A stretch of DNA of 64,000 nucleotides from contig JBPOHN010000035.1 of NCBI GenBank assembly GCA_052035525.1, positions 7,135-71,134 of the forward strand. Reading direction: 5' to 3'. The notes under the pieces are model-generated. The model searched no databases. It was not told the origin of the DNA and worked only from the letters and a program-made list of their open reading frames with translations. The DNA is from Armatimonadota bacterium (lineage in GTDB: Bacteria > Armatimonadota > UBA5829). The first letter of the stretch is position 1. Every line of letters starts with the position of its first letter. Positions 5,008 through 62,185 of this stretch are shown here, piece after piece. A program made the position numbers and the translations under genes.

Positions 5008-5043
5008 GGTTAGAAGGTTGGAAGGTTCGGAAGGTTGGGAAAG
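5008..5043. repeat. GGTTnGAA octamer tandem run (4 units)
   Basis: Sequence is GGTTAGAA GGTTGGAA GGTTCGGAA GGTTGGGAA. It lies in the divergent intergenic region between the GH5-like gene and the cyclase gene. Confidence 0.7.
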
Positions 5044-8080: not shown

Positions 8081-8102
8081 GGCGTTACTATTATACAGGT
8101 TT

Positions 8103-8131
8103 GAAGGTCGTAAGGTTAGAAGGTTGGAAGG
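8103..8131. repeat. GGTnnGAA/GGTTnGAA octamer run
   Basis: Sequence is GAAGGTCGTAAGGTTAGAAGGTTGGAAGG, directly upstream of the metallophosphoesterase start. Confidence 0.6.
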
Positions 8132-15147: not shown

Positions 15148-15215
15148 GTTAGAAGGTTTTGAAGGTTAGAAGGTTGGAAGGTTAGCAAGACACATCCTTC
15201 TAACCTTCCGACCTT
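15148..15215. repeat. Octamer repeat run folding into a 16-bp hairpin between convergent genes
   Basis: A run of GTTAGAAGG TTTTGAAGG TTAGAAGG TTGGAAGG TTAG. Positions 15170-15185 pair with 15200-15215 (15/16). Confidence 0.6.
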
Positions 15216-16977: not shown

Positions 16978-17454
16978 ATGGTCACCATGGACAGCATACG
17001 CGAATTCAGCCGACGGCTGGCGACAGAGTTTCACCCGGAGCGGATTGTCCTGTTCGGGTCTTACGCTTCAGGCACCCCCACGTCCGATTCTGACGTCGAT
17101 CTACTCGTCGTAATGCCGTTCGAGGGTAAGCCAGTCAACCAGTCCGTAGAGATGAGAGTCCGACTGCGGCCTAAGTTCGCGGTTGACCTGATCGTGCGCA
17201 CCCCGCAAGCAGTCCAGCAGCGGCTGGAGATGGGTGATCCGTTTATGCGTGACGTGCTTCGTGACGGAAAGGTGCTCTATGAAGCCGAACCGACCTGGGA
17301 GCTATCGCGGGTGGACTCGGCATATCTTTCGGACTTCGCGGTGGCTTTTCGCTATCCCGGCGAGGCAGCAGACAAGGAATCCGCACTTGATGCTCACCGC
17401 CGCTGCCGTGCATTTCGCTCAGTAGCGCGCACCGCATTCAAGCTACCCCTCTAG
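16978..17454 (+). CDS. Minimal nucleotidyltransferase (MNT antitoxin-like) fused to the C-terminal end of a HEPN domain
   Basis: LFGSYASGTPTSDSDVDLLVV is the GSx10DxD NTase motif. The C-terminal 55 aa (LSDFAVAFRYPGEAADKESAL...) match only the tail of HEPN domains, with no Rx4-6H motif. Confidence 0.6.
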   Translation: MVTMDSIREFSRRLATEFHPERIVLFGSYASGTPTSDSDVDLLVVMPFEGKPVNQSVEMRVRLRPKFAVDLIVRTPQAVQQRLEMGDPFMRDVLRDGKVLYEAEPTWELSRVDSAYLSDFAVAFRYPGEAADKESALDAHRRCRAFRSVARTAFKLPL

Positions 17455-18879
17455 CCTCTGCACAAACCACTCCATCGCCTGCCTCGCCTTCTCGATCTTG
17501 AGCTCCTTGCGGTCGCGCTTGTGGTGCTTTTCGGTGAGCTCAGGCAGGATGCCGAAGTTGGAGTTCATAGGCTGGAAGTCGTCGATTGGGCAGCTGGCCA
17601 CATAGTCCACAAGCGCCCCGAGGATCGTTTCCTTCGGCGGCACGACCGGCTCCTCTCCCAGGGCAACCCTCGCGGCGTTGATTCCCGCGAGTATCCCAGA
17701 CGCGGCGGATTCCATATAGCCCTCAACGCCCGTAAGTTGCCCTGCGAAGAACAGACCTCTGCCTCCCCCCTTGCCAAGGGACGCCAGGCCCTTCCTTCCC
17801 CCCTTGCGAAGGGGGGACACAGGGGGGTCTGGACGCAAGTGCAGCGCCGGGGTCAGCAGATTCGGCGAGTCGATGTAGGTGTTGCGATGGACGGCGCCGT
17901 AGCGCACGAACTCCGCGTGCTCCAGGCCGGGGATCATTCTGAACACCCGTTCCTGCTCCGACTGCCTGAGCTGAGTCTGAAACCCGACCAACCCGTAAAC
18001 GCTGCCCTCGGTGTTCTCCTGCCGGAGTTGGACGACCGCATGAGGCCGCCTACCTGTGTGAGGGTCCGTCAATCCGACGGGCTTCATCGTGCCGTGAGCA
18101 AGCGTATCCCTGCCGCGCCGGGCGATCTCCTCGACGGGCATACATCCCTCGAAGTAGGCCCTGCCGCATCCTGAGCCTGTCGAAGGGTCGCCGGCAACGC
18201 GCTCCTCCTCCAGGTGCAGGTGCGCGATCTTGGCCTCAAGCAGCGCATCGATAAACGCTTCGTACTCCTCGCGGGTCATCGGGCAGTTGATGTAAGCCGC
18301 CTCGCCCTTGTCGTAGCGAGACTGCCGGAAGACCTTGCTCTGATCAATGCTGTCGTACTCGACCGAGGGCGCGATCGCGTCGAAGAAGTGCAGGTGCTGC
18401 GCGCCAGTCAGGTTCTTGATGCTCTCCTCGAGCGCAGGCGAAGTGAGCGGCCCCGTTGCAATGATGCACGGCACGATCTCCCCTTCATTCGTAACTAGTG
18501 ATTCGTAACTCGTGACTTCTTCCCTGATCACCTCGATCAACGGATTACCCTCAACGGCTTCGGTGACAAGGTCGGCGAAGCGCTCCCTATCCACGCACAG
18601 CGCGTCCCCGCCGGGGACGGCGGCCTTCGCGGCGCAGTCGAGGATGATCGAACCCAGCCGCCTCATCTCCTCCTTCAGCAGCCCGTGCGCCGTGCCGGGC
18701 GAGTTGGACTTGAGGGAACTGGAGCATACGAGTTCCGCGAGCTTGCCCGACCTGTGCGCGGGCGTCATCACATTCGGCCGCATCTCATACAGCTTGGCGC
18801 GAATCCCGCGCTTTGCTATCTGAAAAGCGGCCTCGCATCCCGCAAGCCCACCGCCGATGATGATCACTTCATCTGCCAT
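17443..18879 (-). CDS. trmFO: Methylenetetrahydrofolate-tRNA-(uracil54-C5)-methyltransferase
   Basis: Motifs VIIIGGGLAGCEAA, IATGPLTS, FAGQLTGVEGYMESAASG. The Met at 18879 is the preferred start. Confidence 0.9.
   Translation of the reverse strand: MADEVIIIGGGLAGCEAAFQIAKRGIRAKLYEMRPNVMTPAHRSGKLAELVCSSSLKSNSPGTAHGLLKEEMRRLGSIILDCAAKAAVPGGDALCVDRERFADLVTEAVEGNPLIEVIREEVTSYESLVTNEGEIVPCIIATGPLTSPALEESIKNLTGAQHLHFFDAIAPSVEYDSIDQSKVFRQSRYDKGEAAYINCPMTREEYEAFIDALLEAKIAHLHLEEERVAGDPSTGSGCGRAYFEGCMPVEEIARRGRDTLAHGTMKPVGLTDPHTGRRPHAVVQLRQENTEGSVYGLVGFQTQLRQSEQERVFRMIPGLEHAEFVRYGAVHRNTYIDSPNLLTPALHLRPDPPVSPLRKGGRKGLASLGKGGGRGLFFAGQLTGVEGYMESAASGILAGINAARVALGEEPVVPPKETILGALVDYVASCPIDDFQPMNSNFGILPELTEKHHKRDRKELKIEKARQAMEWFVQRLEG
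17757..17833. repeat. Two G/C-stem hairpin repeat units inside trmFO
   Basis: CCCTTGCCAAGGG (17768-17780) and CCCCCC-TTGCGAA-GGGGGG (17798-17816). They encode PPVSPLRKGGRKGLASLGKGGGRG. Confidence 0.7.
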
Positions 18880-20832: not shown

Positions 20833-20853
20833 GGGCCGGGAATATCCCGGCCC
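20833..20853 (+). terminator. Stem-loop after guaB
   Basis: GGGCCGGGA-ATA-TCCCGGCCC followed by TTGCTGT. It is preceded by the heptamer run ATTTGCA ATTTGCA GTCTGCA ATTGACA (20801-20833). Confidence 0.5.
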
Positions 20854-27104: not shown

Positions 27105-27785
27105 TCAGAATGACGCAGCCAGCAGTGCCCTCGCCTTTTGCAGCGCCTTGCCCCTGTGAGAGATCGCGTTCTTTTCCTCGGCTGTGAGTTCAGCCATGTG
27201 CTTGCCGAGTTCGGGGACGTAGAAGACTGGATCGTAGCCGAAGCCGTGGGTTCCTCTGGGCTCGCGGGCGATCAGGCCTTCGACAGAGGCTTCGCAGGTC
27301 TTTACCCCCCCTGCCCCCCCCTTCGTAAGGGGGGGGATAGGCTGGGATTCGGCCTTCGTAAGGCGGGGGACTCGTTGCGGTTCCCCGCTTGTAAGGGAGC
27401 GGGCTCGCTGGGGTTCGGCGATGGCTATCGCGCAGCGGAAGCGGGCGGTGCGCTTCTCGTCAGGGACATCTCTCATCAGACCGAGGAGTTTCGAGTTGCG
27501 CTCCGCATCGGTGGGCGCGAAGCGGCTGGATAACACTCCGGGGGCGCCTTCGAGGGCGTCCACTTCCAGGCCGGAGTCGTCCGCGAGCGTCAGTTCTCCA
27601 GTGAATTCGGCGTAGGCAGTCGCTTTCAGGATCGCGTTTTCGATGAAAGTGCTGCCGGTCTCCTCTACGTCGGGTGCCTCGGGGTAATCGGCGAGCGAAA
27701 CGACCTCATACGGCAGATCGGAAAGCAGAGCCGCGACCTCCCTTGCTTTGCCAGCATTCTTTGTGGCTATGACGAGTCTTTTCAT
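27105..27785 (-). CDS. rdgB: Non-canonical purine NTP pyrophosphatase (RdgB/HAM1) with repeat-derived insertion
   Basis: Motifs VIATKNAGKAREV, DDSGLEVDAL and GFGYDPVF. Confidence 0.85.
   Translation of the reverse strand: MKRLVIATKNAGKAREVAALLSDLPYEVVSLADYPEAPDVEETGSTFIENAILKATAYAEFTGELTLADDSGLEVDALEGAPGVLSSRFAPTDAERNSKLLGLMRDVPDEKRTARFRCAIAIAEPQRARSLTSGEPQRVPRLTKAESQPIPPLTKGGAGGVKTCEASVEGLIAREPRGTHGFGYDPVFYVPELGKHMAELTAEEKNAISHRGKALQKARALLAASF
27314..27416. repeat. Three tandem G/C-stem hairpin units inside rdgB
   Basis: C8-TTCGTAA-G8 (27314-27336), GCCTT-CGT-AAGGC (27352-27364) and CCCGCT-N8-AGCGGG (27384-27403). The spacers end in GGATTC or GGTTC. Confidence 0.75.
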
Positions 27786-35996: not shown

Positions 35997-36013
35997 CCCC
36001 CTTGCGAAGGGGG
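35997..36013. repeat. Solo G/C-stem hairpin repeat
   Basis: CCCCC-TTGCGAA-GGGGG in the hrcA / Lon-like intergenic region. Confidence 0.7.
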
Positions 36014-36138
36014 ACTGAGGGGGATGGCTCGGGACCAACGGTGCTGCCGAGAGCAGACTTGGAGGAAGCGGTGTGCAGTTTCTGGCTTGCATACGGGCGG
36101 GTAAAGCAGTTCTAGACGCTTTGAGGAGTGAGCAAGAC

Positions 36139-39419: not shown

Positions 39420-40322
39420 ATGAAAGGCGTATACGATTGTGAGATTATCGAGCAGCGCGAGGTGTCGCCTGGTGTGTATCGCACACTGCTGACGGGTGGG
39501 GAGATCGCGCGGGAGTCCGTGGCGGGCCAGTTCGTGAACCTGCAGGTATCGCCGACGACTGATCCACTCCTGCGCAGACCGTTTTCCGTCCACGCGGTCT
39601 ACCCGGAGAGGGGCGTCTACTCGCTGCTTTATGTTGTTGTGGGGCGCGGGACGCAGCTACTTCGGCAGATTCCAGCGGGAGAGAAGGTGAGCGTGGTAGG
39701 GCCGCTGGGACGAGGTTTTGGCCTCGGAGACTCCCCCGATGATGAGCACATTGTGGTAGCCGGCGGATGCGGGGCCGCTCCACTGCACTTCCTCTGCGAT
39801 GCGCTCTGCGACAAGTGGGGCTGCGAGAAGGTGACGGTCCTCGCGGGCGGCAGGAGCAAGAATGCGGTCCTCTGCGAAGCTGAGTTCCGGGAGCACGGAG
39901 TAGAAGTGGGCGTCGCTACAGACGATGCCAGCTACGGCTACGCCGGATTCGTAACCCAACTGCTGGAGGAGCAATTACGAAGTACGAATTGCGAATTACA
40001 GAGAATTCGTGTCTACTCCTGCGGGCCGCATGCCATGATGCGCGAAGTCGCCCGGATCTGTCACGAGGCCGGAGTCGCAAGCTGCCAGGTATCGCTCGAG
40101 AACAACATGGCCTGCGGCCTTGGCGTGTGCGTCGGCTGCGTTCAGAAGATCAGGGGAGCCGAGAGCTCGAAGTCGAAAGTCGAAAGTCACCAATGCACGT
40201 GCGCAGGTGGTCCCGACAATGATCAATGCGTAACAATCAATCATGAAACTGAGGCGTGGCACTACGAACGGGTGTGCACGGATGGGCCGGTTTTTGATGC
40301 GGAGGATGTGATATGGGAGTAA
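39420..40322 (+). CDS. pyrK: Dihydroorotate dehydrogenase electron-transfer subunit
   Basis: RRPFSV FAD motif and GPLG NAD motif. [2Fe-2S] Cys pattern C-X4-C-X2-C...C. The track's upstream extension is antisense to the pilin-like gene. Confidence 0.85.
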
Positions 40323-58727: not shown

Positions 58728-58808
58728 CCCCTCCTTCGTAAGGAGGGGAGAACCGAGATTTCCCTTAAGTAAGAGGAGACAATCTTAGCTCCCGCCTTGC
58801 GAAGGGGG
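58728..58808. repeat. Intergenic array of three G/C-stem hairpin units (30-33 bp period)
   Basis: CCCCTCC-TTCGTAA-GGAGGGG (58728-58748), a degenerate TCCCTTAAGTAAGAGGA (58761-58777), and CCCGCC-TTGCGAA-GGGGG (58791-58808). Confidence 0.7.
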
Positions 58809-58993
58809 ATGAAGGGGGGTTCCCGCAAGCTGCCATTACGTTCCCCGTGGAAGCTCCTCCATAGGTAATGGCCATTCATCGTTGGACGTATTACACTTGG
58901 ATCACATTCCGCGCGGGTGGATTCGGCTGCGCAGCTTCGGATCGATTCGAGGGCGGAGGCCTGGCAACCAATCTCTAAGAATTTCTGCTGATC

Positions 58994-60744: not shown

Positions 60745-60822
60745 CTAACAAACGTAGATCGTCCGAGGTCTGTAACCCCGGACGCGGTTCCAGGGGTCTG
60801 TGGCCCCTCCCTCCCATCACCA

Positions 60823-60853
60823 GGCGCGGTCTTTACGAAGACCGCGCCTTTCT
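60823..60853 (+). terminator. Rho-independent terminator after hcp
   Basis: GGCGCGGTCTT-TACG-AAGACCGCGCC followed by TTTC. Confidence 0.65.
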
Positions 60854-62162: not shown

Positions 62163-62185
62163 CCCTCCCCTTCGTAAGGGGAGGG
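62163..62185. repeat. Solo G/C-stem hairpin repeat between convergent genes
   Basis: CCCTCCCC-TTCGTAA-GGGGAGGG. Confidence 0.7.

Follow-up and report, generated by a model that had tools for sequence, protein, structure and literature searches.

In-frame insertion of a dispersed C/G-run repeat element in rdgB of an Armatimonadota bacterium and its probable expansion by tandem duplication

In a 64,000-nucleotide (nt) stretch of DNA from a bacterium of the phylum Armatimonadota (GenBank assembly GCA_052035525.1, contig JBPOHN010000035.1, positions 7,135 to 71,134; hereafter the window), the gene rdgB, coding for the dITP/XTP pyrophosphatase of the HAM1 family, contains an in-frame array of three repeat units that ends in a short element built of one C-run and two G-runs. 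We conclude that the array probably arose from a single insertion of this element into rdgB, followed by tandem duplication of the element together with host flank. An earlier examination of the DNA from its letters alone (here called the sequence-only reading) had noticed three hairpins in the gene and had taken them for a DNA-level repeat lying in a coding sequence (CDS). This view is borne out by the results, since 7 occurrences of the core CCTTCGTAAGG (with at most one mismatch) were counted in the window where 0.87 would be expected, a number that none of 100 shuffles reached, and since there are copies in intergenic DNA and in other phyla.

Results

Anatomy of the array

The array consists of three in-register units of 33 nt (27318–27416) and a G-run tail, and its period is exactly 11 codons. 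A repeat search gave direct-repeat matches at 27317–27353, 27350–27386 and 27383–27419, spaced by 33 and 33 nt, and the units are 70–73% identical to one another. With a similarity of no more than about 70% between its units, the array went undetected by Tandem Repeats Finder. On the coding strand the units read EPQRARSLTSG / EPQRVPRLTKA / ESQPIPPLTKGG, as had been correctly translated before. Each unit opens with the host-derived GAACC(C/G)CA(G/A)CGAG (EPQR codons), so that the 33-nt unit is made up of host flank (GAACCCCAGCGAGTT, EPQRV) and hairpin.

The stems were found where the sequence-only reading had placed them, at 27314–27336, 27352–27364 and 27384–27403. Only unit 3, however, folds into a strong hairpin (C8-TTCGTAA-G8 in the plus-strand reading; 10 bp, z = -2.2 against composition-matched shuffles). 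The stem of unit 2, GCCTT-CGT-AAGGC, contains one C-G to G-C double change and is marginal, 6 out of 200 composition-matched shuffles folding equally well, and that of unit 1 has shifted register to give CCCGCT-N8-AGCGGG and cannot be distinguished from shuffles (40 out of 200 fold equally well). We place no reliance on the compensatory C-G to G-C flips of units 1 and 2 as evidence of selection on the hairpins, since these units fold no better than shuffles and since template-switch correction of quasi-palindromes would yield an identical pattern.

The tail after unit 3 reads GGG GCA GGG GGG GT. This second G-run belongs to the last unit only and is absent from the two upstream units, both of which have decayed. 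Since the repeated unit includes the host flank EPQR and since the second G-run is confined to the last unit, the array is to be understood as a local tandem duplication and not as three landed hairpins, as had been implied by the sequence-only reading.

The element in rdgB is thus more than the hairpin described earlier: the 10-bp hairpin is followed by a third run (G7), and the same architecture is the modal form in other phyla and the form of the single unit in the closest orthologue, L001. The general form is T-C7/8-TTACGAA-G7/8-N2-3-G7-T, approximately 32 nt (32–34). The forward element is open in all three frames, which encode PPPYEGGGRGG, PPLRRGGQGG and PPLTKGGAGG. The three runs give it both triplex and G-quadruplex (G4) potential. 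The G8-CA-G7 tail can be written GGG-G-GGG-(G)CA-GGG-G-GGG and thereby has the canonical four-tract G-quadruplex motif (G3+ N1-7). When G4 folding was enabled in ViennaRNA, a three-layer G4 was predicted at -27.7 kcal/mol and the hairpin at -20.7 kcal/mol, so that the G4 was preferred. This program models hairpins and G4 structures but no triplexes, and the triplex is a potential at the sequence level.

Units at the same site in orthologues

The 120 closest RdgB proteins (69–87% identity) are all from Armatimonadota. No insert is present in 102 of the 120, which have an 18-residue segment, AIAIAEPDGxVKTCEGxV, at this place, and it is likewise absent from all RdgB/HAM1 proteins of the PDB. The insert is lineage-specific: no homologous segment was found in unrelated lineages, and only related Armatimonadota share it. 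The excess, which had been put at about 38 residues, is smaller, namely approximately 32 aa relative to the 18-residue segment of the 102 orthologues and approximately 30 aa relative to E. coli RdgB. Within the orthologue family, internal indels are confined to the loop with the insert.

At one codon position of this loop the orthologues form a series of zero (L005), one (L001) and three (window) units. The empty site of L005 reads GAG CCC GAT GGC AGT GTA (E-P-D-G-S-V). In L001 there is one element, GAG CCC CAG CGA GTT CCC CCC CTT ACG AAG GGG GGG GCA GGG GGG GTT, and the EPQ(R) codons are its single-copy flank. A single forward-oriented unit occupies the same codon position in eight other Armatimonadota orthologues; it encodes PPLTKGG(A/P)GG in six of them (AEG in P0002), and the other two have PPLARGG and PLVRGG as variants. 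Judged from this distribution, the forward insertion appears to predate the window genome.

Further events have taken place at this site. L002 (P0012, 251 aa) contains four elements with a period of 57 nt, the unit being the element plus 3' host flank, and its flank-derived PKPCEHTTL resembles VQTCEGTIE. In L004 (P0008) the element is in reverse orientation, C7-TGG-C7-TTCGCAA-G7, which encodes PPLAPPSQGG and is followed by 27-nt partial repeats, and in the clade of L003 (P0022/33/48/50) the site is occupied by a different hairpin family, GGGCCGGGATA-TGT-TATCCCGGCCC, in 24-nt tandem units (VGPGYAxx). The duplications around the insert in L002, L003 and L004 are all in frame. Because orientation and hairpin family differ, at least three independent insertion events are certain. 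The sequences also indicate that in at least three lineages an element and its flank have been duplicated in tandem and are read through in frame.

The window itself has a member of the L003 hairpin family, GGGCCGGGA-ATA-TCCCGGCCC, at 20833–20853, between guaB and a WbsX-type glycosyltransferase gene.

Table 1. Location of the two host genes, the units of the rdgB array and the copies of the element in the window.
Feature	Position	Strand	Description
rdgB (dITP/XTP pyrophosphatase, HAM1 family)	27105–27785	minus	Intact 226-aa open reading frame (ORF); host of the insert
Unit 1 (E124–G134, EPQRARSLTSG)	27384–27416	minus	Best-preserved host flank of the three units
Unit 2 (E135–A145, EPQRVPRLTKA)	27351–27383	minus	Decayed copy with 5-bp stem GCCTT/AAGGC
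Unit 3 (E146–G156, ESQPIPPLTKG)	27318–27350	minus	Hairpin intact; 5' host-flank part diverged
Complete canonical element, T-C8-TTACGAA-G8-CA-G7-T	27304–27337	minus (coding strand)	Encodes (I)PPLTKGGAGG(V)
trmFO (folate-dependent tRNA U54 methyltransferase)	17443–18879	minus	E=4.5e-122 to T. thermophilus TrmFO 3G5Q
In-frame 22-aa insert PPVSPLRKGGRKGLASLGKGGG in trmFO	17761–17826	minus	Inverted doublet
Full copy, C5-TTGCGAA-G5-ACTGA-G5	35997–36023	plus	Intergenic, between divergent hrcA and Lon-like protease gene
Hairpin-only relative, CCCCTCC-TTCGTAA-GGAGGGG	58728–58748	plus	Intergenic
Full copy, T-CCCGCC-TTGCGAA-G5-ATGAA-G6-T	58790–58820	plus	Intergenic, between alanine dehydrogenase and hybrid-cluster protein (hcp) genes; one run interrupted
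Hairpin-only relative, CCCTCCCC-TTCGTAA-GGGGAGGG	62163–62185	plus	Intergenic, between convergent engB-like GTPase and amidohydrolase genes

Conservation at the nucleotide level

Silent sites were compared among the seven orthologues with a forward element. The element codons are CCC CCC CTT ACN AAG GGG GGG (G/C)CN GGG GGG GTN in all seven, and glycine is encoded by GGG in 27/27 cases inside the element as against 7/98 (7%) in the remainder of these genes. Mean pairwise identity at the four-fold sites of conserved codons reached 0.91 within the element, compared with 0.48 over the N-terminal 108 codons, and the variable positions of the element are the loop centre and the spacer between the runs. 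The runs are thus conserved at the level of DNA or RNA, a constraint from which the two upstream units of the window have escaped and decayed. This conservation may be due to selection on structure, to gene conversion by free copies or to the canonical form having inserted repeatedly.

Host protein and assembly support

The reading frame of rdgB is open throughout, as stated in the sequence-only reading. Pfam identified Ham1p_like in the product (E=6e-63), the match being split into two stretches, and in the PDB comparison with E. coli RdgB (E=6e-49) residues 1–121 and 163–216 were aligned, leaving 41 residues between the two parts where the E. coli protein has 11. All 37 columns that are invariant across the 120 orthologues are retained (37/37). 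An AlphaFold2 model built with 120 aligned sequences had a mean predicted local-distance difference test score (pLDDT) of 84, with values below 50 solely at residues 128–158, between the strands 113–123 and 162–172, and the remainder of the model superposed on E. coli RdgB with TM 0.85–0.91 (Foldseek, TMt). The protein thus belongs to RdgB/HAM1 by its Ham1p_like domain, its conserved catalytic motifs and its fold. The surface-loop position that had been suggested for modelling is in agreement with the prediction, according to which the insert is a disordered surface extension at the tip of a beta-hairpin, and we infer from the model that RdgB probably keeps its enzyme activity in spite of it.

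An independent metagenome contig, L006 (JGI 3300000506), has an array identical to that of the window base for base, and the sole difference between the two rdgB genes is a 4-nt indel outside the array. It is therefore unlikely that the array is an assembly artefact, a point that the sequence-only reading had left to be checked. Collapse or expansion during assembly or polishing of homopolymer-rich repeats is in our opinion a most improbable explanation: long-read assemblies are error-prone at C8, G8 and G7 tracts, and the two assemblies do differ by the 4-nt indel within rdgB, but they are concordant across the entire array, the ORF stays open through three homopolymer tracts, and the element is present at the identical site in orthologues from unrelated samples.

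The indel in L006 (2756–3432) is a deletion of GACT at gene positions 208–211, which splits rdgB into gene calls of 101 and 143 aa. The contig is from the same organism, and the deletion, which lies outside the repeat, may be genuine variation or may stem from an error in sequencing.

Other copies in the window and the insert in trmFO

The window contains four full copies of the element and three hairpin-only copies. The sequence-only reading had located further copies of the hairpin at intergenic sites. This is correct for those at 35997, 58728, 58790 and 62163 (Table 1; the neighbouring genes were checked by Pfam), but the copy at 17761–17826 lies in frame within trmFO, a second conserved gene.

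The TrmFO product (P0121, 478 aa) was found on 6 contigs. Its insert corresponds to a 22-residue gap in the alignment with 3G5Q, directly before the conserved GLFFAGQ, and is composed of a reverse element, C6-TGTGT-C6-TTCGCAA-G6, a 15-nt spacer and a decayed forward element, C3-TTGGCAA-G6-A-GGCAGAGG. The three-run design is found within the gene at 17798–17827, and the closest TrmFO orthologue, L138, has the first element of the doublet as well. The loop has a basic 20-residue segment in 44/79 orthologues, 6 more being within 4 residues of this, and assorted repeat inserts in 29/79, including PPLSPPNKGG, VSGFERSGNPET, ETxNLQP repeats and SPSPxGEGRGEG. The SPSPxGEGRGEG insert, that of L137 (1348–1471; P0190), is made up of three tandem motifs of the BoxC/TM_ECO pattern, CCCTCTCCY-N-GGGAGAGGG-N3-GGGTGAGGG, which are read in frame as SPSPRGEGRGEG repeats at this hot-spot loop.

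Two other places in trmFO differ from most relatives. At 18487–18515, TTACGAA forms a 14-nt direct repeat, which encodes seven extra residues, SLVTNEG, that are found in the closest relatives only. At 18145–18180 (residues ~229–240) the protein has 12 residues, AGDPSTGSGCGR, that are lacking from T. thermophilus TrmFO and most orthologues, and unrelated inserts occupy this site in four further TrmFO orthologues.

Some further repeats were seen in the window. With 10 occurrences where 2.7 would be expected, the loop heptamer TTACGAA is over-represented, and outside the element it also forms an array at 39948–39999, AATTACG x3.9, upstream of which there is an inverted ATTCGTAA. At 60822–60849, immediately downstream of the gene for the hybrid-cluster protein, a perfect hairpin of 12 bp, AGGCGCGGTCTT-TACG-AAGACCGCGCCT, has the CTTTACGAAG core in common with the element, and its stem is unrelated. 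Three dispersed arrays (5008–5038, 8097–8131 and 15148–15185), each of about four tandem octamers (A)GGTTNGAA, resemble another repeat family, and the last is followed by its reverse complement, with which it could form a long hairpin.

Distribution of the element among bacteria

The pattern C5-TTNCGAA-G5-N1-6-G5 was searched for in one genome per species, and at least 176 copies were found in at least 119 loci. The matches listed were mostly from Planctomycetota (Gemmatales, Isosphaeraceae), with others from Cyanobacteria, KSB1, Poribacteria, Nitrospinota, Anaerolineales and Bacteroidaceae. Among the copies the modal run lengths were 7/7/7, and the loop was TTACGAA (at least 101) or TTGCGAA (at least 62); in those listed the spacer between the G-runs was TA, TCA, CCA or CA, with T on each flank. 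The Planctomycetota loci listed typically have inverted doublets, 50–100 nt apart. Only seven stretches in IMG/VR contained the element, which is thus not mainly phage-borne.

Rfam at its gathering threshold gave no family in the window, and for the Planctomycetota doublets it gave only spurious sub-threshold matches to miRNA hairpins. A full-text literature search with the element strings and the peptides PPLTKGG and PPLRKGG returned no paper, and a search on small dispersed repeats of cyanobacteria yielded nothing that corresponds to it. All-against-all clustering of the 3,056 ORFs of the at least 119 loci showed no recurrent transposase-like family, a weak negative from clusters that were not scanned against Pfam; among the matches listed, the only family to emerge was a large paralogous one, in at least 21 loci.

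In the Gemmatales metagenome-assembled genome JBBRLG01 (L009, L018, L030, L048 and other loci), the element lies within a larger unit with the outer inverted repeats GTAACCGTTCACT / AGTGAACGGTTAC. This unit, a composite resembling a MITE or REPIN, is found on dozens of contigs.

Discussion

The results can be accommodated in the following sequence of events, in which the mechanism of insertion and the folded form that is biologically relevant are what we infer. In an ancestor within the Armatimonadota, a dispersed G/C element of about 32 nt would have inserted once into the codons of a beta-hairpin turn (E-P-D-G-S-V). The length of the insertion being a multiple of three, it would have added PPLTKGG(A/P)GG to a disordered loop, where the enzyme could tolerate it. 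With its C-run, complementary G-run and second G-run, the element could adopt a hairpin, an intrastrand triplex or a G-quadruplex. In the lineage of the window the element and 15 nt of upstream host sequence would then have been duplicated in tandem twice, giving the 33-nt unit, most likely through stalling of the polymerase and slipped realignment at structured, homopolymeric DNA. The upstream copies, without the third G-run, have decayed, and the downstream copy has stayed canonical.

Several observations weigh against this scheme. Neither a transposase nor a target-site duplication nor any other trace of mobilisation was found, and the clustering of the ORFs around the at least 119 loci, a weak negative, brought out no recurrent transposase-like family. 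The units (70–73% identical) have diverged further from one another than the window has from L001 in the conserved part of the gene, which could mean that an old duplication has since been lost in L001 or that the loop is fast-evolving. The hairpins of units 1 and 2 are statistically indistinguishable from composition-matched shuffles. Finally, a rough neighbour-joining (NJ) tree places the insert-bearing orthologues on several branches, and on such a sequence tree one ancestral insertion with losses would look the same as repeated insertion at a hot spot.

The possibility exists that the element is kept because the folded nucleic acid has a function, as an mRNA G4 or hairpin that paces or throttles translation, or as a slippage-prone C8/G8/G7 on/off switch. 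The near identity of the four-fold sites compared with the flanks (91% versus 48%), the exclusive use of GGG for glycine, the restriction of variation to unpaired positions and the prediction that the coding-strand G8-CA-G7 forms a three-layer G4 that outcompetes the hairpin are all in line with this. Homopolymer tracts of 7–8 are classical features of contingency loci, a pattern which the tracts of the element fit. The same conservation would, however, be produced by gene conversion with free copies or, given the patchy tree, by recent repeated insertion of the canonical form. Moreover, 102 of the 120 orthologues manage without the element, units 1 and 2 have decayed freely, and no common role in mRNA is evident, the G-runs of the trmFO copy being on the template strand. 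In the literature on PIT/BoxC no effect in vivo at the level of promoter, terminator or polymerase was found (PMC4666352). We therefore regard a functional fold as conceivable but doubtful. The same low likelihood is given to the broader proposal that the folded element is maintained in the CDS (as an mRNA hairpin/G4 switch or a DNA triplex/G4, serving as a pause site for translation or replication or as a contingency switch of RdgB and TrmFO) and that the loops are in addition preferred landing pads, targeted by one structured repeat after another, and not simply the sites at which random insertions can survive.

It is less likely still that three hairpin elements inserted separately, side by side, in the rdgB loop. 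The site has indeed received independent insertions elsewhere, including the reverse element of L004 and the other family of L003, and in some orthologues different types of element adjoin in the loop of TrmFO. Units 1 and 2 have stems unlike that of unit 3, as if they were other family members, and the hairpin at 60822–60849 pairs the CTTTACGAAG core with an unrelated stem. Three insertions would nevertheless leave unexplained the exact in-register spacing of 33 nt, the host-derived EPQ(R) codons at the start of every unit, which are single-copy flank in L001, and the presence of the third G-run in unit 3 only, even though all free copies (at least 176) have it. This alternative was rejected because of the 33-nt register and the common host flank. 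An ordinary expansion of the loop at the protein level, with a P/G-rich low-complexity linker in which hairpins are incidental to the codons, is extremely improbable and was rejected: length variation is common at the tips of beta-hairpins, the repeat is in frame and PPLTKGG is common to several orthologues, but the same 32-nt string is found in non-coding DNA of the window and, in both orientations, among other phyla, its choice of codons runs counter to that of the host, and the reverse copy of L004 encodes a different peptide at the same site.

A single insertion with subsequent tandem duplication thus being the probable origin of the array, the element may be compared with known repeats. 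The BoxC/PIT/TM_ECO repeats are intrastrand triplex motifs (Holder et al. 2015, NAR, PMC4666352; earlier Bachellier, Maher). TM_ECO is reported to fold into a triplex in vitro, to be intergenic without exception in E. coli K-12, to have no transposase associated with it and to mark loci with unusual rearrangement between strains (PMC4666352), and PIT elements block DNA polymerase in vitro (earlier work cited in PMC4666352). The window element has the same order of pyrimidine stem, loop, complementary purine stem, 2–3-nt loop and second purine stem, and it too is a dispersed multi-copy repeat that is highly conserved, for which no transposase was found nearby and which is associated with local rearrangement. 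C8/TTACGAA/G8/CA/G7 has the three-block order of a class II C-G-G intrastrand triplex as defined for ITxF (stems 6–15, loops 1–6 nt; PMC4666352). Its stems are 7–8 nt and its second loop 2 nt, but its first loop is 7 nt, or 3 nt if the TT/AA pairs form, and those pairs cannot join G*G:C triplets. Unlike BoxC/TM_ECO, the element is homopolymeric (C7/G7/G7) with a TTACGAA loop and does not fit the consensus CCCTCNCCC-N3-6-GGGNGAGGG-N3-GGGNGAGGG, to which solely the trmFO insert of L137 conforms; its G7-N2-G7 adds a four-tract G-quadruplex motif, and its in-frame copies in rdgB (27304–27337) and trmFO (17761–17826) depart from the intergenic rule of TM_ECO.

The Rickettsia palindromic element, RPE, is a selfish palindromic repeat found in frame in many unrelated functional genes, where it encodes a surface peptide (Ogata et al. 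2000/2002; PMC10969869). Like RPE, the rdgB insert is in frame at a permissive surface position, the disordered tip of a beta-hairpin, with fold and invariant residues intact. RPE is about 100–150 bp long, has a conserved peptide of 30–50 aa and is restricted to Rickettsia (PMC10969869), whereas the present element is 32–34 nt, has an Armatimonadota host, is found in several phyla and then underwent local tandem duplication.

REP/REPIN sequences are palindromes of 20–40 nt that occur singly or in inverted doublets and for the most part lie downstream of genes (Di Nocera et al. 2013, PMC3733652). Intragenic REPs encode 20–80 aa, clusters of them 43–82 aa, often in genes for nucleic-acid handling, and different REPs are present at about the same site in Xanthomonas recB (PMC3733652). 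The element resembles them as a short multi-copy palindrome that often occurs in inverted doublets (in trmFO and in Planctomycetota; the rdgB copy is a singleton). It differs in the third G-run, which has no REP counterpart, and in the absence of the GTAG/CGTC tag, the at least 176 copies having T...T flanks and no conserved tag. No transposase-like cluster that could stand for RAYT (Y1 HUH transposase) was found among the ORFs of the at least 119 loci, again a weak negative.

Bacterial MITEs may fuse in frame with host ORFs, for example the Coxiella QMITE (PMC5896051) and intragenic ERIC and BOX elements. The window element is, to judge from its sequence, a non-autonomous repeat translated within a host protein as they are, but MITEs are 70–300 bp long, with terminal inverted repeats and target-site duplications, and neither of these features was seen here. 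By analogy, then, the element appears to work like these systems while being a member of no named family.

In-frame palindromic inserts as such were known from RPE and intragenic REPs. What is new is a dispersed repeat of the triplex/G4 type that is translated in housekeeping genes, conserved at silent sites and apparently capable of seeding in-frame loop expansion at hot-spot loops. The finding joins two literatures that have been separate, one on triplex/G4 instability repeats considered "strictly intergenic" and the other on selfish palindromes translated within genes. In two conserved enzymes the motif would be read through by the ribosome, and the in-frame tandem duplications that it seeds independently in several lineages would constitute a route from non-B DNA to new loop sequence. 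The loops of RdgB and TrmFO gather different repeat families across the phylum and thereby offer a natural experiment on insertion targeting versus selection, and the synonymous-site conservation within the element makes it testable whether such repeats are junk or functional. For annotation, the element accounts for unusual low-complexity loops rich in P and G, and for genes called in separate parts, in genomes of Armatimonadota, Planctomycetota and cyanobacteria.

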